NCBI GenBank assembly: GCA_903813345.2
Contig: CAIIXF020000001.1
Span: forward strand, 4,216,001-4,280,000
Direction: 5' to 3'
Source of the DNA: Owenia fusiformis
Taxonomy: Eukaryota
Length of the DNA stretch: 64,000 bases
Below are positions 11,629-60,200 of the stretch, piece after piece. Both the position numbers and the translations under genes were made by a program. The notes under the pieces were generated by a model. That model had not been told where the DNA came from. It ran no database searches and worked only from the letters and a program-made list of their open reading frames with translations. Numbering within the stretch: the stretch's first letter is position 1; every line of letters begins with the position of its first letter.

Positions 11629-14600
11629 CTATTCCTTCGCTTCAGGAATTTCATTGTCATCTACAATCAGTGAATGAATTAGTCCTTCTCTCCTGTTTCC
11701 ACTAGATATGGCTTTTATATAAGCACTTTTGTTGCCTAATGTAAAATGTGTCTCTGTGCCGTCATCTACAAATTCACCCTGGAACAAAACACATAGCATG
11801 TTATTTATTGGAGGTTTAGGATATCAGACAGACCCACAAATATGAAAAGTTAGGTACAAGATTAGATAGATATAGGCCTATCTGATATAAAACATCCCAA
11901 TGGATGCATCCAATACGTATTTAGGAGTTGAGTATTAAGAATGTCTGAACATAGAACAATAAATGCCCCAATTGATTTCAATTGACTAACTGAATGGCAA
12001 GAATCATAAACAAAATCAAAAATGAACATTTAAACCTACAATACTGATAATGAGAGACAATTGAGCTGCAAATGTAGTTGCACGACAATGTGCTGTAAAT
12101 GTAGTTGCATGACAATGTGCTGTAAATGTAATTGCATGACAATGCATGAATGGTACACGATATGGAATTATAAAGCAATAGATGTCAAATTGACAAATCA
12201 TTAGTTATTAGTCTAAAAACAGATCTCAAACAATGTAGGTAAATGCGTCATAACAATCACATTAACAAATAATAAATATCCCACTTTATTACAGGGTGAG
12301 CCAAAAAAACGTAACTGAAACAAATGTTAATACCTTAGCTTATATTTGCGAATGTAAATGGTGGCTAGCACCTACCAGATTAACATTAAAGCAACTCATT
12401 TAAATATGAATACTGTAGATTGGGTTAATTTGGCGCCCGCTTTAATTTGGCGAATTTGGCGAAATTGAAAAATTCGCCAATATAAATCTTCGTCAAAATT
12501 TAGAATGAATCCCCGGGAATTATCTAGGGTATTTCGTCGAGTGTATTTAGGTCACTTCCGGTTGAGTTTTTTCCAAAAATATGAAAAAATGTCTCTCATA
12601 TATTGGCTCAGAACTGGTCAGTCACTTATTAATACTCAGGGAAAAACTAGAAAGGAAAAGTGCAGTATAGTAGCAGCATCAATCGAGGTGCAAAATGTAA
12701 AGGATGATCTCACAAAAATGTACAAACGTGGTGAATATTGCCAGTGGTCCTCAAAAGAAAAAATTAACATAAAATTCGCAAACAACGCGTAAGTTAATTA
12801 AATTTTTTTTTGCATATCTGCCAAATTAAATAGCTGCCAATATGCCAAAAATGGCAAAATCGCCAAATTAAGTAGCGCCAAATTAACCCAATCTACAGTA
12901 GTACCTGCCACTATTCCATTCATATTCAAATTAGTTGGTTAAAAAATAGTAGGCTAATCTGGTAGCCACTAGCCGTTGTATTCGTGAATACAAGCTTAGT
13001 CATCCAGTATGGGTTATAACTCATATTTGGCACAATTAAACTTTGTTCAATGTTGTTTCATTCAACTAAGTTTCATTGGTCAATTTCCAATAGTCATGAT
13101 GTCATGGCAATGACACAAGATATCTGTGAATGTGTAGTCAGAAAATTTCACTTGATGTGTTCAAGTTTGCCTCAAAAGTCAAGACGGGCATTTTGAGCAT
13201 GCCTTGTGAAATAGCCATAAAATTATCACCTTTTGGAATAGACCAATGAAATAATGGTTGAATGAGAGATCATTTTACAAGGTTCAACTAAGCCAAATAT
13301 AACTTGAAACCCATACTGAATGACTGAGTTATTAAGATTTGTTTGGGTTACCTTTTTTGGCTCACCCTGTATGAGTAAAAATAACACAATTGTACCAACA
13401 CTAAAATAATAACTTTATATCAAATGAATGTAAATATTTAAAATGATTTCCCTTTGATGAAAATATGATACAAAATGAATAGTATGAGGTGAATGGGACA
13501 ACTTGGTAAAGGGTTGAGTACCAAAATTATATGCTTAAAATAAACATGTATTTCATTAAAAGTGAAATCCTGGGAGCAGAATTTCCCTCTCCTGGAATAA
13601 GCCAGACTCAGGGTATATGTACAGCATGGGAACACCTCTCTCAGGTGAACACTTCAAACACAGAACATTTCATATGGCTTCAGTTTTGGATGTTATTTTA
13701 CTTTTATGAGGTGAACAGTTGAACACTTTCAGGTGATTCTGACTAGAATGTTCACTTTAGACAGGTTTTACTGCATTCCATATCATGAGCTATTACACTT
13801 ATAACTTACCGTTGACTCTACTCTTTGACCATTCACCCAGACATCTAAAGTATCTTTTTCTGGAAATACAGCATAATAGCTATTTAATTACATACAGAAT
13901 TTCTCATGCAGCAATCAGTTTTAAAAGATTGGTTAAGATTGAACCCATAGTCAATAGTCAATACAAAACATGGGGAGAATGGGAAAGCACTTATATAATT
14001 CAATACTTAGATCCGATCAAGCTTCAGCAACATAATGAAATAGAAATGATAATAGAAGGGGCATTGTTTTAGCACATAATGGAGAACTTGATGGGGTATT
14101 TAATAGCTATAGAAGAGAAAACAATACACTGTATGAAATATGGAATACCCAACCTTTACTATAGTAATACTATTAATCATTTTATCCGATAATGCATTTT
14201 GATCTGACACCTTAATAACATTCACAATAGATCTACATTATCTGATAAATATGATTAATAATAAGAATATATCTTTGGCGATATAGAGCATTGTTTTACT
14301 AAGTTCAATAACATGCCTACCAATAACTGAACTAAGTCGTGAAATCTAAATCAATAAAAGAACATGATCTAGAGAATACGCCATCAATAAATTATATCTT
14401 AATGTCATTTTACACAATGTATGTAAGCCTTGAATTATATTATTGGTTACTTTACAATCTATCTATGGCGTGACAAAAATTGTTTTATGCTTCAGACTTA
14501 CTAACATGATGCAATTTCATTAATGAACAAGTTATAGTATGCGTCAAGGTCTAGATGTTTTTGGTCAATCATTTTATACTGACAGTACGAAACATATAAA

Positions 14601-17600
14601 AGAGATAGAAGGATGCACATTTTCCAAAGTAAATTTGTATGTCTTAAATTTGTGGGATTGGGCATCAGTGAATTCATCCTGCATGCACAATTTAGTTATA
14701 AACTAAGAAAAAAACGAAGCTCTTTTTAAAAAAGCGAAGTCGAACAAATGCAAAGGGTACACTGAATTGTGGCACTTTGATCCAAATTACACTACTGACA
14801 AGATGACAAATGATCATCTTTTCCCTCCACAACCCTGTTCTGATGGTTGAAAGATGGGTGGAAGGGGTAGGGATAGAGAGAAAAGGGTTATGGAAGGGGA
14901 GGGGGGATGTAGTACATTGATGCAAGGTTATTTTATGCAAGGTTATTTTGATATTTCTTTCTCCAATCAAGCTTTTCATGAATCGGACTATATTCCCTGC
15001 TAAACATATTTGTTTTGTATGCGCGCTTAAATATATTTCTGTATTAACGTTCGCCATTAAGTTGTGAAAAACATCGTCAGCTTAAAGTCTCCATAGTCAC
15101 TGGGGGGTATCGTGATGCAACAACACCGTGTTGTTGCATCAATATGGCCAGACTTCCGGTGATAGATTTTCGTACGATGTTTTGTTTTCCCAATTTACAC
15201 CCATTTCTAGGACGAGTTGCTCAATAATCATACACATGCAGTTAGCACATGATCTATATTTTAAAAAACTGTCATTGGTATACATGTAGCATCATCAAGA
15301 AGCGATAAATTCGTGGTTTTAATTCCTCACTATTGATGCAACAACACCACTCTGTTTCTTATCGATGATGCAACAACACCAATGTGCTGATGCAAAAACG
15401 CCAATATAATGTATCATTGAACAACAAGAGAAACTGTTTTATGTTCTGTTTACAGGTGTAGGTCGGGACATGAATAAAACGCGTGAGTCAGTGGTCCATG
15501 GACGAAACGTATTTTGTTTGGTTTCTTTGTCTATATCAAAGTTAAAAAGATATACAAGGCAAACTAAATAAAGTACAGAATCCTCGGGAGGCAATCTCAT
15601 TGATATTGTATCTGAAAAAATAAAGATTATACATTTTCTAAATTAAATGCCCTTGATTTACCGTATGGAAATTGCTTACAAATAACTAATATAATTTTGG
15701 AAAGACAACAGATATCAGTCATTTTGTGTTGTTAGTACCTCAATTGAAATACTCAATTCTGATTGGTTGATGAGCGGGCAACAAAATGTATTGTTAGTAC
15801 CTCAACTGAAATACTCGATTCTGATTGGGTGATTAGCGGTCAAAATTATGTACTGTTGACCGCTACTAGGTACTGTTGACCGCTACTTCTGAAAAAAGTT
15901 TCATGACGTCACAAAAAAACATGGAAGACGGACATTTTGTAAATGTTGATGAAAATGACTTTACTAGGCGACAAGTATAGCAAAAATACAAAAAAAATTA
16001 ACATTAATTCACTAACGAGTACGCCGTGATGTGCCAAATACTATGGCTGGCCATCTGGACCAATGTATCGTCATACTTTTAACGCCGTAAAATCTACTTT
16101 TAACGTCGTAAAAACGATTTTATACGCCGTAAAGAATTACTTTTACGCCGTTAAAAACGATTTTGTACGCCGTTAAAATTCATTTTGAACGGCGTCAAAA
16201 ATAATTTTTAACGCCGTAAAAACGATTGTATACGCCATAAAGAATTACTTTTTACGCCGTTAAAAATTACTTTTTACGCCGTTAAAAATTATTTTTTACG
16301 CCGTTAAAAATTATTTTTTAGGCCGTTAAAAATTACTTTTTACGCCGTTAAAAATTATTTTTTACGCCGTTAAAAATTACTTTTTACGCCGTTAGAAATT
16401 ATTTTTTACGCCGTCAAAACTGATTTTTTTACGCCTTTCGAAATTGCGAACGTACAGAACATTGTTAATCATTTGCGAAAAAATGTTTAAACAATGAAAA
16501 CTCGATGTTTATCAAATTCCCGAGATTTCCATACAACCAAATGTGTCTGGCAAATAAAAATTCCAATATAAATGATAAATGTGACATGTAAAGTGACAGA
16601 AAAATAGGGTTTTGGATTTATATCAATCAGTCGGTAAGTCGAACATACACGTTTGTTTGTTCAATGAATACCAGATTGTAACGCTGGTTTTAATTGGCTG
16701 CCAGCTATACTTTTTAACGGTGTACAAAATCGTTTTTAACGGCGTAAAAAAGTAATTCTTTACTCCGTATAAAATCGTTTTTACGGCGTTAAAAATTATT
16801 TTTGACGCCGTTCAAAATGACTTTTTACGCGTACGTAATTATTTTGACGCCGTAAAAAAATCAATTTTGACGGCGTACAAAACCGTTTTTAACGGCGTTA
16901 AAAGTAATTCTTTACGGCGTATAAAATCGTTTTTACGGCGTTAAAAGTATGACGATACATTGGTCCAGATGGCCAGTCATAAAATACAGAGTTAAGCTTC
17001 TTGCACTGTCTCCATATTTTCTAAAAACAATATTGCTAACGTGGTTCGGAGAAAAGGTTGTGAAATGAAGCCATGCCGATTGATGATCGTCGTCTATATG
17101 TGTATTATTAGTTTACTCGGACTAACAAAACATTCGATCAACCGTCAAAATCATATACCTCGACTGTAAACCTTGAAACTACTGTTGACCTCGACCTTCG
17201 GTCTCTGTCAACAGTATTTTTTCGGTTTACAGTCTCGGTATACAATTTTGCCGGTTGGCCTCTGGGGAGGTCAACAATTGTAAACTGTTGACCACTACTA
17301 GGTACTGTTGACCCCTATTTTTGAAAAATTGTTTTTTTAATGTTGAAATTTTTTTAATTTTGAAAAAATAAGTTGTGTAAAAATTTAATTTTGAAAAAAT
17401 AAGTTGTGTAAAAAATTACGAGTATTTGACGGTTTGGGGATTTTTTGCTAAAATATGATACCTTTACTTATCAAATATGTTCACGTGATATTCGATTATA
17501 TATTCGTCCAATTATTATATTATTTGGACTAACAGAACAATTGTTAACCTCTCTTTTCGGCCAACTGGCAAAAGTGTCCTCGACATCTGGTCTTGATCAA

Positions 17601-20600
17601 CAGTACTTTCAACGTTTACAGTATCGTATCGGTATACAATTTTGCCAGTTGACCTCAAGAGGGGTCTACAATTGTATATTGTATATCCTTTGTTATCCCA
17701 CCCAAATTATGATGTCATATATCAAGTTGAAGAGTTGTATACGCTGCTCAGGAGTTTACGCTATCCAGGAGTTGTACATCGTTTTCAAGAGTTGTATAGG
17801 ATGAGTGTTGGTTTAATGATATTGCAGTTATACAATGCTATTATATAAAAGTTATTTACTGAGAGGGACTCAATGTTGGTTTTATTTCGAGAGATAATAT
17901 GATATTTCCCGAGGGCCCGGGATATCTGGGATAACTGTACCCCTATCAATTTACCTTTTTGGGCCCTAAATCTTATCACTTTTGTTTACCTTTTTACTCA
18001 GTCGGAGAGAAGGAATCCAAAGAGAGCAATAATTCTACATGTGCGTCGTGCAAGATTTCCATTAAACGTGTAACTAAACGGCCTCTCTAATAAAGTCAAT
18101 TAGACGTTTTTACACGTTGGCTCTCCAAATTGTAGGAAATAAAGAATCATGTCATATTATATCATAGATGAAGCAATCATCCCATCAACATCAGCTCACG
18201 AATGTCAGAGTTTATCACTGTTCCACAGATGGATGACAGATAATATCATGATAATATCCAATAGCTCATCATGTTTACCGAGAACGAAAGATGTTTGTCC
18301 ACCATTTTGAATGATACTAACTGGAGTCAGGGCCATCAAGCTATGGAACAGTGGTTTATGAAAATAGATTGGGTTACTAAAGCTTGCCATGTTAAAGGCG
18401 ATTGAACTATGTTATAGAATAACGTCCAGTACATTATAATATGTAAAAGTATAAATTTTGAAAATACATATAAAGGATCTTCGCCCACAGGACGTGTATT
18501 TTGAATGCCTTGAGAAGAACGCAAATATGGGTAAGCTAATTGATAACGGTATTGCAATAGTAGCATTTAAAAATCTGTTCCTCTCGAGATTTATGGTCTT
18601 CTGAAATTATATTATTAATTGGTGTTGCTGCATCATTGCTCAAATCTAGAGGAGTGTTGTTGCATCTTCGGTTTGGTGTTGTTGCATCAATAGTGAGGAA
18701 CTAAAACCGTGAACTTATTGCTTCTTGGTGATGGTACATGTATACTAATGACAGTTTCTTTAAATATAGATCGTTCGCTAACTGCACGTGTATGGTTATT
18801 GAGCAACTCGTCCTAGAAATGGGTTTAATAGGGGAAACAAAATATCGTACGAAAATCTATCACCGGAAGTCTGGCCATCTTGATGCAACAACACGGTGTT
18901 GTTGCATCACGATACTCCCCAGTGATAGTGGGATATATTCCCCATTCACCAAAAGTGCAAATTTAAATCTTATTATCAGTTGCAGCTAGTGGGGTATATA
19001 ATACTTGACTTATTGACCTTAACCCAGAATCAACACAAAACACATTTAGCTTGAAAGGAGTACTTGGCTTATCTCATTGCTCCAGAATCAATACAAAACA
19101 CATTTAACACAATAAAATATGATTTTAACTTGAAGCAATTCCCCTAAGGAGCATATTCCACTGAACAAAACATTTTATCAAATCTCTAAAAATAACCAGG
19201 CACTAATATTGTCTCCTTTTGGCAAAATTCTACACGCATGATGTGACAATCAGATACTATATTAGAAATTATCTTACACTTAGTGAACTTAATGTATAAT
19301 AACATCGTGAAATTTATTTTTCAATGATATTATACATTTAGTTCCCTAATTAAAGGATAATAAGAACATCTTATGATTTTTTTAGAATATCATTTTAATC
19401 TGCTCGGTGATATTAATGTCAATATCACCCTGTAGATAAAAATGATATTCCTCAAAATCATTGTATATCCTATAATTCTCAAGTAGATATCCTCTGACAG
19501 TTTAAATTCAATGGGCATCTTGAAAATTTCATCTTGAATAACGAGATGGATAGCAGATGGACGAACAGACAGACAGACTTTTCCCTCCTGAACTAAATGT
19601 TTGAAAGGATAATGGGCACTAAGAGGCGTTAAGTACAAATCAAATATTAGCAATTGAAATAATAAATTAATACAAATATTCCAAGTTTCCTGATTTCTGG
19701 TACGCAAATGAATAATCTATAATAACTTATTTGACATTAACTTATTCCCAATATACCATGTTAATAGTAGGGCAAGTAATGGAATTGCATCTACAAACCT
19801 GCAAACTTATAAGTTGATTTGAAAAACAGTTATTTTTACCTATTTATGTATCATTTCAATACTGTACTACGGGTAAATTTTGACGCAATAAAATTTCGCG
19901 ATTTTTCAAAATTGCAATTTTGCGGCTATTTAATTTCGTGGATTTGAGTTGATAACATTTCGCGAATTAATTGCACAAGTTGAATTTTTTCCGATTACCG
20001 TGAATCAATGCGTATCTGGCTATTTTAGCCCGTTCAGAATCTGAATAATGTTTGTATTTCCCACGTTTAGGGCATTTATTTGAATATTCTTGAATGTTTT
20101 TTTCAACTTCAATTTGTAGGATATCATTGTCGTCAACAGTTCTTGCCTTTGTTGGCCTAATAAGCCAATGTTAAGTAAATGTACGCGATTTTACTACATT
20201 CGCGAACAAAGCAAAATTAAATCGCACGCGAACAATACCCGGAGTACAGTATATAAACATTTAATAACATTTCAAATATGCATGAAAAAATTGCAATGAT
20301 AAGTTTACATGATATGATTTATCCATGTGGCAGTATTGTTGAGAGACATTTATATGTGTTCATACAGGCAACAAACAGATGAACAACAGAACGATTGCAA
20401 TAGATGAGACACATTGTAACCTGATATAATATACAGAAGACCTACCTAGCACCACTCTTGTTGGCTCTCCTGATACTGTTAAAGTCCAAGTCTTCATAAT
20501 CTTCGACTGATTTTCTGAGAACTTTTTTAAAGGTTTACCATTCACTTCGAGTGAATATTCATATGCGAATCCACTGATGGCTTCAACTATTATAGAACAC

Positions 20601-21759
20601 TTGGCTTTGCCAATATTAAAATGTTCCCTACCCACCAACTTAAACATCCAGTCTCTACGGAGTATTTCCTGAAATAAAAAAATGCAATTAATTTAAGCTA
20701 AGAACTACAAGAAGACAGTAATTTCATGAAGTGTTTTCTCAAAGACATTAAGGTGTTATATTCTCCTGGGCCCTGAGTCAATAGGCCCATGAAGTATGTG
20801 TTATACAAAGTTCAGAATATAGAAGATCACTTAAATCGCAATGTTTTCCGAATTTAGTCTAATTCGGACATCCACAATCCTTAACAACTTGTTCCAGGAA
20901 GTGAATATCAAATGTTGCATCAATAAATGACAACATTATTCCATTTTCTCCCTAAAATCATGAAATAAAGTGTGGTATGAATACACAGCACACTTTTAGG
21001 TTTTGAACATGGAAGCCGAAGATTAAAAAATGGGCCAGATACAAAGTGTTCACGCTGAGAGATGTTCAGATTAGAGAGGTGTTTGGATATACAGGTTTTA
21101 CTATATGTGCAACAGGCCTGTCAACTGTCCCGCAATTTGCGTATTTGTCACGCATTTGCTGAAGAATTTGAAGTCACGCCAGTTATTTTTGCGTGACAGA
21201 AAATGTCACGCAAATACGCATTTTACCTGGTAATTGTCAAGCAAAAATATTTATGTAGAAAAATTTCTAAAAAAGATCGTCTACACAGCAAAAATACGAA
21301 CGCCGGAAAAAAATGTACGCATTCCGTTCGGACTTTTCACGCGAATTACGTTTATGTCACGCATTCTGTTCGAAATTTTCCGTACCTACCCCTCCCCCCC
21401 TTTTAAACCAAAGTGTTCAACATTTGGAACGAGGTGTTCAGATTTGGACCAAGGTGTCCACATTTTGAGGGGAGGTGTTCAACATTTCCAAGTCACTCAT
21501 GTTAGGTGTTCCCAAGTTGACAGGCCTGGTGCAAGTCCATATATGAAAAAGGTAAAACGTTGTGTATTAAATTAGATTATTCATTCTCTGTTGTCTCCAT
21601 GCTAATATACTAAGTGAGTGATTATGATGAAGGAAATAAACTTACGATTCCATCTGCTCTTATGACTCTCTTTCCAGAAGTTGTGCCATGTTCAAACTCA
21701 ACTCTATGTATTCCATCACTGAGGGAGACGTCCCATAATGCAACCAAATCATTAGACAT
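11629..21759 (-). CDS. FAIM: Fas apoptotic inhibitory molecule, 178 aa, 4 coding exons
   Basis: Exons 21759-21646, 20668-20446, 13859-13810 and 11778-11629 (537 nt, all GT-AG, phases consistent). Translation: MSNDLVALWDVSLSDGIHRVEFEHGTTSGKRVIRADGI/EILRRDWMFKLVGREHF...YEYSLEVNGKPLKKF...RVVL/EKDTLDVWVNGQRVEST/GEFVDDGTETHF...EIPEAKE*. Confidence 0.96.
12068..12145. repeat. Minisatellite, 27-bp unit, about 3 copies
   Basis: TGCTGTAAATGTAGTTGCATGACAATG repeated; explains the repetitive ORFs at 11978 and 12016. Confidence 0.8.
12411..12900. mobile_element. Tc1/mariner-type MITE with TA duplication, copy 1
   Basis: Perfect TIR TA-CTGTAGATTGGGTTAATTTGGCG...CGCCAAATTAACCCAATCTACAG-TA; a highly similar inverted copy lies at 39556-39990. 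Confidence 0.92.
12999..13324. mobile_element. MITE, possibly PIF/Harbinger-like
   Basis: TIR GTCATCCAGTATGGGTT / AACCCATACTGAATGAC, flanked by TTA and TGA (imperfect 3-bp duplication). Confidence 0.6.
15730..17690. mobile_element. Nested hairpin-ended repeat, possibly Crypton-derived; boundaries approximate
   Basis: Duplicated GTTAGTACCTCAA(T/C)TGAAATACTC(A/G)ATTCTGATTGG; TACTGTTGACC repeats; long hairpin at 17150-17245 centred on GACCTTCGGTC with a decayed second copy near 17520-17675. Family assignment is inference. Confidence 0.45.
16042..16981. mobile_element. Foldback-type element with tandem 21-22-bp arrays in both arms and a 6-bp TSD
   Basis: TATGGCTGGCCATCTGGACCAATGTATCGTCATACTTTTAACGCCG pairs with CGGCGTTAAAAGTATGACGATACATTGGTCCAGATGGCCAGTCATA. 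AAATAC on both flanks. Units like TTTTTACGCCGTTAAAAATTA at 16075-16435 and inverted at 16710-16945. Confidence 0.9.
19860..20251. mobile_element. Tc1/mariner-type MITE with TA duplication
   Basis: TA-CTGTACTACGGGTA...TACCCGGAGTACAG-TA, with subterminal TTTCGCG/CGCGAA motifs. Confidence 0.7.
21113..21528. mobile_element. MITE with CAGGCCTGTCAACT TIRs and a 6-bp TSD
   Basis: CAGGCCTGTCAACT...AGTTGACAGGCCTG; GTGCAA at 21107-21112 and 21529-21534. Confidence 0.85.
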
Positions 21760-25246: not shown

Positions 25247-28200
25247 ATGGCCGCCCGAGAAAAGAAATCAAAGCGGGTATGTTTTCCATTAAATGGGACC
25301 ATTAAGCTTAGTCTTCGCATCAAAAAGATTTATATTTGTATGTTGGTAATATGAATTGAAGACATGAAAAGTTTTGAAACAGTTTGCTTCGTTGTTTCTG
25401 TTCTAGACGTAATATAGCCCCTTTCTCGGATATTTTTCAAAAAATAATTTGAAAAGTTCATAGAATCGCGCCAAAAACTTGTAAAAGAAAAGAAGAGGAG
25501 AGAAAGCCTCAGCGCTTTCTAGAGATGTTTGTTTGTTTGTATCCTTTTATGCGTTATAATGCCGCTAAATGGTCTCGTGGTGCTTGTTTTTCACCCGTGC
25601 TTTCACTTGTGCTTATATTTTCATAAAGTCTAAAATCACTTTTATACCTTAAGTCTAATATATACAGTTTTATAATGTGCTCATTAGAATCTTCTGGTTT
25701 GCCTTATGTAGCTGCAAAAGGCATTATATAATTTCCTGTTTGACGATTCCGACAGATTCATGTTTAGTTCGCACGGGTGCGTAAATCAAGGGGAGGGTTT
25801 GTGTTTTCCCCGAGGAGAATGCTATCTACTTTCAAGTGGAGCGCTAGCCTTTCAGTTTCGAAGAGTTTACATGAAATTATGTAGTGGTCCACAATTTCTG
25901 GTTTATTACAGAGTTCACAGAGGTTTGTTGTACTTTGGTATATTTTGGCTTGGTGGCTATTGAGTTGGGTATGTCCACTTATGAGCTGGTTGATGATGCA
26001 GGAGATTCTGCGGTTGGGAGATACAATTTTGGTTTTAAAGCCAACCTTTGTTATTACTTGTGAAATGGCCCGAACTTTTTTAAAGTTAGAATACTGTCTT
26101 TGACATTTGTTTTTGATTGATTGGTGAATTATATTATATGCTTCGCTTTTGGTAATACTGATGGAATAAACCTCAAGCTGCTCTGCCAAACTTGCTGCAC
26201 TTTTTGCATACTTATCAGCTACTTCATTGCCAATGATGTTAACATGACCTGGTACCCTGGCTGCTTGTAAAAATTCCAACCTAAGCAGCAGAGCATAGAC
26301 TTCTTCTAAAAAGTTATTACCCTTCGCTGATACAGGTTTGTTCAGACAAATTGGATCTGTTAATAGTCCTTCCAGGTATATTATGGCTGCTGAGCCTGCA
26401 GGCCCTTCTACAGATAACGTCTCTTACTCCCAGGGGAAATAAATAATTTGGGTAGAAATGTGCAGCATGGGCAATTTTGGCTTAGGGCATAAACCATGGA
26501 ACCTGGCCAATTTGAGGAAAATTTGTCGAAGACTAGAGAGCCTTTTTTAAGTCAAAAATCAGTTTTTCTACAAAAAATCATAAATATTAATTAGTAAAAT
26601 CAGTTGGCGAGGTCTGGGACAAATCACTCAAAAAGTGAATTTTGTAGTTCATATAAAGTTTGGAACATAAAAAGTGGTGAACATGAATAATGACTAACAC
26701 TATGAAAAAGACATTCTGTCACATATGTCATAAATTCTTACCTCAGTGAATTGAGTGCTCTATTTTCTCCATCCCAGAACGTACAATATAGTGGAATTTG
26801 TGTCCATAATGACAAATAGGAACTTAAAAATTTAAAGTGATATTCACATGTTAATGTTGACTCTTCGAATGTTGAGGTGATTTTGCCGCCATTTTGAAAC
26901 CTGTCACGAGTAAATAAGGTTAACTGATGTTGCATTCTGGGAGTCAATCCTTCTTGGATCACAAACATGGCGATCCATGAAAACATTATTCGATTTGGTA
27001 GGAATTTATCCATCATTTGCAGGAATGAAGCTTTGGATTCATTTATTGCGCTACTTACAGTGAACGGGAATTATTTTTCTACCGCTTGGGAGAGTTTGAG
27101 ACATGAAACTTAGAATTTAGCTCATTGTGACAACTTTTGATGGTTGAGGTTTATAAAAGTCTCCGACAATAATGACTAACACAATGAAAATTCTGTCGCA
27201 CATATAATAAATTCTTACCTCAGTGAATTGAGTGCTCTATGTTGTCAATACTGGAAAGTACAAATGTAGTGGAATTTGTGTCCATAATGACAATTAGGAA
27301 CTTTTGAAGTGATTTTCACATGTTAATCCAGACTCTTCAGATGTTGAGGTGATTTTGAAGCCCGATTACGCCGCAGGGAGGATTGACTCCCAGAATGCAA
27401 CGTGACAGCTTTCAAAATGCAGTTTCGCCATTTTGAAATCTGTCATGGGTAAATAAGATTAACTGATGTTGCATTCTGGGAGCCAATCCTCCTTGGATCA
27501 CAACAATGGCGATCCATGAAAACATTCATTGAATTTATCCATCATTTGCAGGTATGAAGCCTTGGATTCATTTATTGTGCTACTTAGAGTGAACGGGGAT
27601 TATTTTCTACCGTTTGTTAGAGTTGAGAAACATAAAACTTAGAATTTAACTCATTGTGACAACTTTTGATAATTGACATTTATTAATTAAAGTTTTCCAT
27701 TGTACCAATATTTCTGGAAATTTACTCCCTTTTATAAGTCTGAGGGGATGTATACATGGAAACTTTCAATCTTGAGACGGAATTGACACGGAAAAAATAC
27801 TCAAAAATGGGGTCTTTGGCGCGGCACCTAGGTATTAAGAGGTATATTGGAATGTAACCACCGAGCTCTTATTTACCACCTTAGTTTGTTAGAATTTTTA
27901 CCGTCTAGTTTCCAAATACAACACTCCAATGTAAAGTTTTAAGGTTAAGATTTAGTATTAGTAATATTTCCAATCAACTACAGCTTATAATGCTATATTA
28001 ATAAACTAATGAATGGGAAAAATCTGTATTAGGTTTTAGAGATAATACACCCTCTTCATCTCAACATCGAGATCAAATTATTTCTAGCTTTAAGCTTTAA
28101 AAAATGAAGTTGCTGAGACCACCTTTTTGCTTGGTATTGAAACATTATTATTTCATATTCAAATATAAAATTACATGCACTTTATCAGTAATCGATTTTT

Positions 28201-55648: not shown

Positions 55649-56887
55649 TTTAAAAAAAACTGTCCTGGTGTATACTATACTAGTATCCTCTTAATTTTGT
55701 TGGAATGTTTAAAATTCTGTCTGTTGGATATACATGTAGACTCTAGTGTATACTATAACCTACATGTATGTAAAGACCCCATAAGAAATGACATATGACT
55801 AGAAACTCCATAGACCTACACTTAGTAGATCGAGTCTAGATTGCAATATTAGATCAGAGACACATATAGATGGCTCTGAATAGATATGATCTGAAAATAA
55901 TACTAAGAGTTAGCCAAACCTTTCGTTAGATTTTTCTAATCATGTCTCATGTATGGCAGTCTTCCTGGGATTGATTGGCCTGTTTGCTGTCATGAGTTGT
56001 GGATCATTCATTCAATAGTTCATTCAAACTCGTTGGAAATCGAACAATCTTGACTGTCACTTTGAGCCTCAGATTCTGAGTCTCAGTTTCAGAGTTTGAC
56101 TGTCATTTGTGAGTTGAATTTTTGAATTTTACAAACCTAGATACTGTAGTGAAAGATCTTTAAACCTGGTCCTTACTACACGTTTAAAATATGTCTGCAA
56201 CTACTAACATTTCGTTAATTTATTACTTTAACCACAAGGTCTGATAAAACACACCGTAAATGTCGAATATCTTTCTGAAAAAATATTTTGAAATATTTGC
56301 AACCAATGTAAACATCCGGGTCTTTCAAAACTTACTTGGCAATGTATGAGTTGGTATAAGGCTGGTATGATATGTTTTAGTTTGCAAGAGTGAAACGTTA
56401 AGATAGAAATACATTGACACATTAAGGGTTCTATATTGCTGTTCCTATCATGCTAACGAGTAGTATTCATAGGAAATTATTCACGAATTATGCACTACCA
56501 TTTTGTACGAAAAATATGGGTCAAACTTTCCCAAGGTGCATTTCGGCCAAGTCAAAACATTAGAAGTCGAGTTGAAAGCTTTATCTACATCGATCATCAA
56601 AATGAGACCTCCGTAGATCATTAAACCATCTAAAATTTGGTAATGATGTAGATACAACGCTTCTTTATGACTTGGATGCTCCAAAATATAGAAGTAAGGC
56701 TATGATTTTATGTATATCAAAAGTTGAAATTGGTACAGAAATACACATTGAAATGCTGCAGGAAGTTCTAAAAATAAATCTGATGTGAGTGGGTAATTGA
56801 AACTAGATAATTCCAGCTCAGTAAAATGGGAAGTCATAGGAAAAACTACTTAGAAAATAATTGAAACTCAGCAAATCAAAAGGTAAC

Positions 56888-57217
56888 ATGCTTAAAAAAG
56901 TACGGTCAAGCACAACGTCTATTATTCCGACAAGCAAATCTACACCAGCCTTAGATAATCTAAATAAATCAAAGCTCAATGGAGAGAATGAGCTTTCAGT
57001 GGATATATCATCAAATATGGGAAAAGGACAAAACTATGAAATTGAACGGGGTTCACAGGATGATAACATGAACTGTTTACCACCCAGTCCATCTTCATTG
57101 AGTAGAAGAAGGATATCGTCATGCCAGGCTCTCAAGAGTGCTGTTGCCACATTGTATCGCATGGATGATTTTACGACTGAAGAACTTGGTTCAGGATTTT
57201 TTTCGGAAGTGTTTAAG
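56888..57217 (+). CDS. TESK: First coding exon of a TESK-family (TESK1/2, Drosophila cdi-like) kinase; remainder not found in the window
   Basis: ATG at 56888 to donor AAG/GTAAGT at 57217. Ends [34 protein letters not shown], the TESK-type pre-kinase segment and Gly loop. The start codon choice is tentative. Confidence 0.85.
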
Positions 57218-60200
57218 GTAAGTCATTTACCATTAGGACTTGTGTGTTTGTGCAACATGAATTTGTAACTTAGATTTTGTAGCATTTCAGTCATATGCTG
57301 ATATCTCATTTGACAATTATCTATAAAATTTCTTTCTTTACAACCTGAAATACTAGAATCTTCATTTCATAAAGTTACATTTTTAGTTGTTTTTGAGCCC
57401 CCTACCTTATTTTTTCTATGACGATAAGGCACTTTATTATCATGATAATAAAGACACTTGCTCAAGACAAAAATGACTGTTATTTGAATTCATATGATGC
57501 AAGCATGATTTTAAAGAGTATTTTCCGATGAGAATATCTGAAAATTAATATCCTGAACCTTTCGATAAGTAGTGATGAAATCACTCAAGATAAGATAACA
57601 ATGTTTTAATTAGATATCATTGGAGATTCTAAGACTTTCTTTATAAGTCTGAGTCATATAAGCTTCAAGAGTGATAAATTGATAAAGTTGGTCAGAACTG
57701 CCCAACCCATAAAATATCTCAAGGGCCCTCAAAATTTAAGCCTAAATGAGATTGGAGAACTTGCTCATAGTTCTAGCATAGATTTAGTTTCTTTATTCTT
57801 CTATCTACAGTCTATGTATGTTGAACACAAGGTCTAATTAGAGAATTATTCCATTGAATGACTGTTAAATCTTGGATAATCGAAGTTCCCAAACTTATTT
57901 GCTGTCATGTTAATTAGCTTCAATGTAGTTAGGAGATATGTATGGAAGATAATACAGGGATTCCACAGTTCATATTACATTAATTTCCTAAAATTAGATT
58001 TGCACCTACATTTGTCAGGAATTGCAGTTTATAATGCAATCATATCACCAGCAGCAGATTGCTGGTGATAATTACACTGAATGTAGACGAATATGATTGT
58101 GAAAATTAGCTGTGTAACTGTATATTACTAAATGTATGGTCAGATTTTATGATACAATTCTTGAACAGATCAGAATCATATTTTTTATAGTTTCAAATAT
58201 ACATTTAGTATAAATATAGATTGTGTCATATGAATCTTATAAACCCCCCTCTCCCAATGATCTAAACAAATTCATATATTAAAATACAGTTTTGAATCCA
58301 TAAAATCCAGTTGAAAATTGGTAGGAAAATCACCACAATGCTTATGGTTGACACCGCAATTATTTTTAATGACATTATATATAATGAGAATTTTCAGTTT
58401 TGTACTCAGGGAAAATCTCTGAAAACCCCCCAAAAATTTAGTGCAAATTCTGACTAACTTGTACCTACATAACTTCCGAGATAATTAGTCAACAACAAAG
58501 CTTACAAAATATCGGAAATATCTGGAAATTCAAGTCCATTTATCAAACAGTGTTTTCTCTGACATACCAGGCTAACTATCTAAGATGGTCTGACTTTAGA
58601 TTATGCTTTTGAGGTTGATAAATATTTGTTTGTGGTTGATTGATAGTTGTTTGTTGTAGATTGGAGGCGAGGCACACACTTGTGGTAAGGTACCAAACAC
58701 GTCATTCTGGGTTAAGTTTCATTAAAAATTTCCCTCTTTAGTCAATGTGGTTACTAGGAAAAGGGTATTTTTGAACTAGACAGGAATCACATTTTTGAGG
58801 GTAAAGGTCTCGGATCATCTTCTCTGCATATTTTTTTTATTTATATGTAGGAATCTCCTTACATGGTCTTGATAACTGAGAATGCAGTCAAGTTTTGTTG
58901 GTAGAAGTAGGTTCATTAATGTACATAGCGAAAATGCTTGTGACAATAATGAAAGAGATAGGGACCACGATGTTGAACCTTTTATAATTCATTAACTTTT
59001 CAGCTACCATTACAACATGTATAATATGTTATGTCTATGATATGTCCTCCTGGCTCACTTCCCCACAGCTGACCACATGTTACCTCTTAGAACATGTTCT
59101 TTACCTGCGGACCTTACAAAACAAGTGCTATTCTTCATAAAACAATTGCAGTCTTCACTATGTATTTTATTTATTTTCTTTCTCAATATGTTCAAATAAA
59201 AATCATTAAGTTACTTTCTGGATTCAATCTCGTGAGATTTTTCTTGCTTTTCTAGGGATATTCTTTATCTTTATTGGGATTCAGATGTCTTGAGAAATAA
59301 TGATCAATACTAATTAGTGTGAAGTCTAGACCTTGGAATCTACTATACTCATACACATAGTAGACCTTTCTAACTAGATTCATTGAGTTGATATGAAATA
59401 TTATAAATGAAGGAGCTTCATATATAATATGAAAAATACATGTTAAATTCACATGTGGGGATCATAATACAAGCTCTGTTTTTGTAATGTTTTGTAAAAT
59501 TGATTAAAGTTCTATTAAACATTGTGATACATCTGTAATTTCTTAAAGAATACAGCATTAGGATGTTGCTGTATCAGCTTAGTTCACTAATCTCCATGTA
59601 GGGGGCCTGTAAAACGAATTATAGGAAATCTATATGATGGAACTTCGAATAAACCTACAAGTAGAACCAATCGCATAGACTGACTTACATGTGAAAGGAC
59701 CCTCTTTGCAAGTAACACCTTTCCACAATGAACAATTTTTGGCAGTACAGATTGTGCTCCATATCAGTTAATATAGTAATATGGTTTAAGTAAGAGTTAG
59801 AACTGACCCATTCTATAACACACATTCCTCTCCTTCCCTTGATTACAGTCACTTAGTGCACCCCATCCTATAATCAATATACCTGGAGTCGGATAAAGTA
59901 GGTGATTATTTTGAGTCTGAGTCCTTCATTGCATCTAATGTCCTATTCCCTTCATCATGTTATATATAAGTATGGCAAGGGCACAATAACTATAGACGAA
60001 GACTGTTATCGAGCAAAATTAATTGTTACTCTTTTGTCGTTATTTTGGTAAAAAACTCTAGGTATATAATGCTGATGTATTAGTAAAATTACAACTTCTA
60101 TTATTGGAAATGGGCATTCTAAATATCATTCATTGATTCGAAAGAAAGTACATTACTTGCATATAGTCATATACTATGAAGGTTTCATATGAGCAGTGGT

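Follow-up and report, generated by a model that had tools for sequence, protein, structure and literature searches.

The transposon at positions 15098-18924 (3,827 bp) of the window, the whole 64,000-nucleotide stretch analysed (Owenia fusiformis assembly GCA_903813345.2, contig CAIIXF020000001.1, positions 4,216,001 to 4,280,000), is a member of a high-copy, non-autonomous family with terminal inverted repeats (TIRs). It is very probably a non-autonomous cut-and-paste element in which no conflict between protein and ends can be demonstrated. An earlier, sequence-only reading had proposed such a conflict, in the form of pogo-type coding remnants within Transib-type ends, and this is not supported here. 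Its description of the ends themselves stands: the CAC...GTG termini (CACTG at the start, CAGTG at the stop), the ATAGT duplication and the TIRs of some 300 bp with repeated sites are all present, the TIRs being ~316 bp long with a 13-bp motif five times per end, in mirror-image arrangement between the ends. The two arms are 87.6% identical over 282 bp (blastn). In the left arm the outer motif pair, tail-to-tail, is a probable binding site for the transposase, and the inner three motifs sit 221-275 bp inward of it. The element is intronic in a FAIM1-like host gene on the minus strand, since it is located between exons near 20400-20670 and near 13850.

Evidence for a family comes from the genome at large (499.5 Mb in 819 contigs). 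The terminal 24-mer has 533 exact matches, its reversed control none, and the family accordingly numbers about 270 copies. Sixty-two copies were examined, the window copy included; 55 have both ends in the fetched DNA and seven do not. Target site duplications (TSDs) among the 55 are of 5 bp in 34, 6 bp in 15 (27%) and 7 bp in one, with none in five, so that 49 have either 5 or 6 bp. The 5-bp length reported for the window copy thus holds there and for the majority, but is not uniform. The collection and tabulation of copies that had been proposed brought to light neither a TA nor an 8-bp duplication in any of the 55. Eight of the 6-bp cases, those from a set of 36 close copies, show one to five mismatches when read as 5 bp, and for this reason the 6-bp duplications are not chance extensions of 5-bp ones. 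Targets are AT-rich with A...T edges: among the 36 copies, 26 have A as the fifth base out and 27 have T next to the end (T also at 226 of 313 listed termini), and G+C in the five flanking bases is 35/180, or 19%, the window as a whole having ~34%. TIRs, dispersed copies and TSDs that differ from site to site, the marks of a non-autonomous TIR family, are thus all seen here.

End identity is ~99% among 39 copies, a figure that overstates the youth of the family because these are the best matches to the window copy. A second subfamily is ~90% identical and has different cargo, and an old end fragment, 79% identical and with no coding part, remains in a cytochrome P450 cluster, which together point to an old family with a recent burst. 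The P450 genes there (L171-L172) are in tandem, and at least two of the duplicates have the fragment downstream of them. Elsewhere, a pair of facing termini spanning 168 bp (G000:C1:33138740-33138907) is possibly a minimal, miniature inverted-repeat (MITE) form of the family.

The interior is likewise that of a non-autonomous element. Those 36 close copies, in which both ends are present, measure 2.1-4.3 kb and have no frame above 217 amino acids; longer copies, up to ~22 kb, contain insertions, two of them Ty3/Gypsy-like. No transposase gene is present in the fetched copies (about 60 of the ~270), transposase protein queries against 18 long or unpaired stretches gave no match, and the long or unpaired copies (20 + 3 + 1 stretches) are all non-autonomous. 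Common to both subfamilies is a core of ~600 bp on the left and, on the right, 17800-18064 plus 18254-18924. The region 15730-17985 had been taken for nested inserts to be removed before any search. In fact the one stretch private to this copy is 16042-16981, and all 31 of the 31 copies that have the left anchor show its empty site; most of the rest belongs to the main subfamily as cargo, and 17800-18064 also occurs in the other subfamily. The private piece appears from its sequence to be itself non-autonomous with IS3EU-type features, IS3EU elements having such ends and such a TSD (PMC12730594, PMC10045372). The inner core is probably a decayed remnant of an old gene-bearing parent, too eroded to name.

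What had been read into that core was a pipsqueak helix-turn-helix (HTH) at 15489-15620 and a PHD finger at 18035-18135. The peptides are indeed in the translation. However, those on the left are pieced together from three plus-strand frames with one stop, and those on the right have two stops inside. Scoring was at the codon level with a frameshift-tolerant aligner against 300 random-window controls, the psq and PHD profiles being built from pogo elements of the same genome and 29 database relatives. The left remnant reached 9-11 bits against the psq profile (control mean 12.5, 95th percentile 16.2) and the right ~12 bits against the PHD profile (control mean 12.3, 95th percentile near 16). 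Genomic psq copies kept out of the profile (four, three of which contain stops) gave 45-71 bits, and psq segments with a simulated 35% substitution and four frameshifts still gave 23-37. PHD controls were detected at 25% decay (22-30 bits) and were marginal at 35% (17-19), near which the power of that test falls.

Other approaches concur. A Pfam scan of 12 frames over both remnants returned nothing relevant and one weak unrelated match. With HMMER, frame-switched readings scored 1.4 bits against an 11-sequence psq profile, a value equalled or exceeded by 6 of 40 controls. Codon-level, frameshift-tolerant scoring against profiles for full-length pogo, for the N-terminus and the core of Chapaev, for the hAT C-terminus and for EnSpm stayed in every case within 25 controls each. 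Profile search detected no Transposase_21 or DUF1280 coding remnant in the element. A phmmer search of the right remnant only, among 1.84 billion proteins, yielded a single spurious match to a repeat protein, and in the ESM Atlas a 46-residue stretch had a best value of 0.83, a lead at most, with no PHD. By impression, a BED or zf-AD finger is an equally easy reading of the CxxC stretch, and the left stretch resembles EnSpm proteins on the opposite strand about as well as it does psq, again not significantly. A pogo-type protein inside these ends depended on HTH_psq or PHD similarity, and none was detectable while the positive controls worked. With no autonomous partner found, a pogo origin stands unproven but not refuted.

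An enzyme encoded elsewhere was sought as well. Inward of the 313 listed G-type termini, over 15 kb, lie 7 of the 445 matches from ten transposase-domain searches, against ~4.2 expected by chance, and three of the seven are outside closed non-autonomous copies. Genome-wide searches with psq, DDE_1, hAT, RAG1, DUF1280, Transposase_21, DUF4371, DDE_Tnp_4, DDE_3, MULE, DUF6589 and KDZ (a set without piggyBac, P, Kolobok, Sola, Zator, Ginger and Merlin) found no partner. The RAG1 profile, PF12940, had no match in the genome but none in its controls either. A metagenome pattern scan gave no matches. For one copy, L036, none of the splice joints listed for the reads (a further 121 being unlisted) suggests a transposase mRNA, and depth at its flanks was insufficient for judging an empty allele.

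As a first guess, and with a weak lean, the mobilizing enzyme may belong to the hAT5/hAT6-like branch of hAT, the only described lineage met with in which duplications of 5 bp and of 6 bp both occur. The suggestion that hAT5 families be compared proves worthwhile: groups with 5-bp and 6-bp TSDs fall together near Blackjack within hAT (PMC12730594, PMC9004415), a position that makes hAT5 a hAT and not a member of a pogo-like group. Short TSDs of both lengths, AT-rich targets (preferred by hATs; PMC1131882), CA...TG ends and animal hosts are points of likeness, and CACTG fits four of the five positions of the YARNG terminal motif, one stated for the 8-bp-TSD hATs of a lizard (PMC3014272). Here, by contrast, both TSD lengths occur in one family, the TIRs are ~316 bp, and a hAT coding remnant is lacking.

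Several considerations weigh against the hAT lean and against the completeness of the partner search. The third base of CACTG, C, violates YARNG, and CAC is the signature of CMC and Transib elements. The lean is drawn from TSD length by itself; end sequences of hAT5 and hAT6 occur nowhere in the text of the supplement of PMC12730594. No hAT transposase is tied to the family: of 139 hAT matches two are inward of a terminus, both outside elements, the top 30 are Ac-type without the family's end motif, and the hAT C-terminal profile, made of Ac-type C-termini only, gave nothing. Four of the seven inward matches (two DDE_Tnp_4, one DDE_3, one KDZ) were not fetched, and ~220 A-type termini stand outside the listing. 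The search would overlook a partner whose ends have diverged, one belonging to an unsearched family or one that this haplotype lacks.

Somewhat unlikely is mobilization by a Transib/RAG-like transposase, or by another one of the CMC clade, whose ends would be atypical and whose 5/6-bp footprint would be AT-rich. CAC...GTG ends with a 5-bp mode are the Transib/RAGL signature (PMC1131882, PMC7204232), as had been stated, and the family has both. Transib elements proper, however, have 5-bp GC-rich TSDs, a CACAATG heptamer and an A-rich nonamer, with RAG off-length TSDs of 3-4 bp (PMC1131882), and protostome RAGL ends, which do begin CACT, carry AAA at 8-10 and duplicate invariably 5 bp (PMC7204232, PMC9435367). 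The element has neither heptamer nor nonamer, nor AAA at 8-10; its targets are AT-rich, its off-length minority is of 6 bp, its TIRs are long and motif-bearing, and no RAG1-like remnant is seen with the RAG1 profile, itself uninformative, or the Chapaev-core profile. The attribution to Transib/ProtoRAG therefore survives in the CAC ends and modal length and not in the rest. Against too strict a view of such features, TIRs and TSDs vary widely inside one Transib lineage, and Kodama/Hopper are examples of long non-autonomous derivatives of more than 100 copies (bioRxiv 10.64898/2026.08.26.747230). Turning to the CACTA/EnSpm and Chapaev side of that clade, CAC(T) ends are again shared, and Chapaev and EnSpm families with intact frames reside in the genome. 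EnSpm elements have subterminal motifs in both orientations, resembling the direct and inverted motifs here. However, neither a Chapaev nor an EnSpm match lies inward of a listed terminus, both profiles were negative on the element, and 4 of 13 fetched Chapaev (DUF1280) loci have CACAG ends with 4-bp TSDs, the motif array being in none. CMC elements have 2-4-bp TSDs (bioRxiv 10.64898/2026.08.26.747230), lengths seen in none of the 55 copies.

Derivation from a pogo-type element (pipsqueak HTH, DDE_1, PHD) of a lineage duplicating 5-6 bp instead of TA is very unlikely. Order and strand of the peptides are as expected, with acceptor-like signals ahead of both (15449-15457 and 17990-18000), and intact psq/DDE_1/PHD pogos reside in the genome. 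Two of these (L129, L131) repeat their end motif ~200 bp inside, where the distance in the element is 221 bp, and in some the word GGGGTA, a G-run, is shared near the tip. Yet the motif array is missing from the residents, and wherever an end pair is readable, in 4 of 19 regions, the ends sit in TA; their domains, as detailed above, score in the element within the range of random windows. Neither CACTG nor a PHD finger is diagnostic in any case, since CACTG also begins some TA-duplicating Tc1-type elements (PMC8472432) and PHD fingers are present in Ginger1 and Mutator proteins (PMC2836005). That no tested family fits all features lends something to a transposase from a different superfamily or from one not yet described (for instance Zisupton/KDZ-type or ISL2EU-type), the inner core then being captured host DNA, but this is unlikely. 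One KDZ match 5.0 kb and two DDE_Tnp_4 matches 4.9-6.1 kb inward of termini, the unfetched cases already mentioned, would accord with it; on the other side the inward matches are near the chance number, the DDE_Tnp_4 case that was fetched is outside a closed 2,958-bp copy, and for the nine other KDZ matches the 15 kb outward contain no listed terminus.

With a non-autonomous cut-and-paste element as the preferred reading, and established cut-and-paste biology as the guide, a DDE transposase made elsewhere would act in trans, bind the 13-bp motifs, synapse the ends and then cut at CAC. The ends would be joined to a bent or bendable AT-rich target whose outer A and T are read, a spacer of three or four bases being tolerated, and such recognition would explain the 5- and 6-bp lengths. 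The middle of the element would be free to gather other repeats. It is improbable, though pertinent to the same footprint, that an undescribed lineage of pogo or CMC/Transib derivation reads the outer A and T with that spacer and leaves a fixed 2:1 mix of 5 and 6 bp, its active gene being absent from the assembly or too diverged to see. A literature search, which did not cover Repbase, Dfam, Repbase Reports and most subscription papers, found no pogo group with 5-bp TSDs, no pogo or other group with mixed 5/6-bp TSDs and no account of the family. The family should not be filed under hAT5/6, Transib/CMC, pogo or another group.

Table. Features of the element and of its surroundings, in window positions.
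Feature	Position	Strand	Remarks
Left target site duplication	15093-15097		ATAGT
Left terminal inverted repeat	15098-15413	+	~316 bp; CACTG at tip
Outer 13-bp motif pair	15114-15140		Tail-to-tail; perfect 13-bp hairpin
Three inner 13-bp motifs	15335-15401	+	Direct orientation, at 15335, 15367, 15389
Left core	15414-15694	+	Common to both subfamilies; contains alleged HTH reading 15489-15620 (not significant)
Cargo of main subfamily	15725-17799		Non-coding; tandem units of 62, 20 and 31 bp, pieces of palindromic repeats
Copy-specific nested insertion	16042-16981		TATGG...TCATA ends; 22-bp arrays in both arms; 6-bp duplication 16036-16041 / 16982-16987
Right core	17800-18607	+	17800-18064 and 18254-18607 common to both subfamilies; contains alleged PHD reading 18035-18135 (not significant)
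Right terminal inverted repeat	18608-18924	-	CAGTG at tip; mirrored 13-bp motifs at 18622, 18654, 18676, 18882, 18896
Right target site duplication	18925-18929		ATAGT
Frame with exon of host FAIM1-like gene	20360-20692	-	PF06905, E 8.4e-31

Other elements met with in the genome deserve mention in their own right. At L173-L185 there are at least 10 distinct Chapaev-type families with open frames of 650-900 amino acids and a zf-AD-like N-terminus, their ends CACAG with 4-bp TSDs where readable; several are multi-copy and for that reason probably active. An EnSpm/CACTA family (L190, G000:C1:24242250-24243500) has nine equal-score copies with open frames of 608 amino acids and was, to judge from these, probably active recently. 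The pogos at L122-L133 contain introns and encode a pipsqueak HTH, DDE_1 and a C-terminal PHD, with TA-flanked ends and inner end-motif repeats. Academ-type DUF6589 matches (G000:C11:14708020 and seven others) fall in open frames of great length, reaching 2,641 amino acids. On a 109-kb contig a terminus and an ISL2EU-type gene are mirrored at both sides (G000:C169:37741-98957), an arrangement that is either a large inverted duplication or an assembly artefact. Within the window, by eye, a 219-residue frame at 25764-26423 on the minus strand resembles the RNase H region of a non-LTR (long terminal repeat) retrotransposon, and an exon at 56861-57268 on the plus strand the start of a protein kinase.

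Transcripts of the family present a different aspect. The 24 sequencing runs listed all bear a single organism label. RNA reads of two runs (X21 and X22) cover both strands of L036:101-2174, and A>G plus T>C make up 309 of 572 and 297 of 558 differing places respectively, against 103 of 466 in a DNA run, X24. The mismatches, which come from different individuals and mixed copies, look like adenosine-to-inosine editing of fold-back transcripts. Run X24, which bears the same species label, also has near-fixed TIR differences from the assembly, e.g. 404 of 406 reads at one place, reflecting a diverged population or a different mix of subfamilies.

As it stands, the family is ordinary, recently amplified and non-autonomous, and is useful for repeat annotation of this genome. 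One trait alone is both uncommon and well supported, a duplication that mixes 5 and 6 bp while its A...T edges stay fixed. The length of a TSD mirrors how far apart the two strand-transfer sites lie. A pogo-type enzyme, should it prove to be one, would be an exception to that group's TA rule. More generally, a partner, if found, would offer a natural test of how strand-transfer spacing changes.

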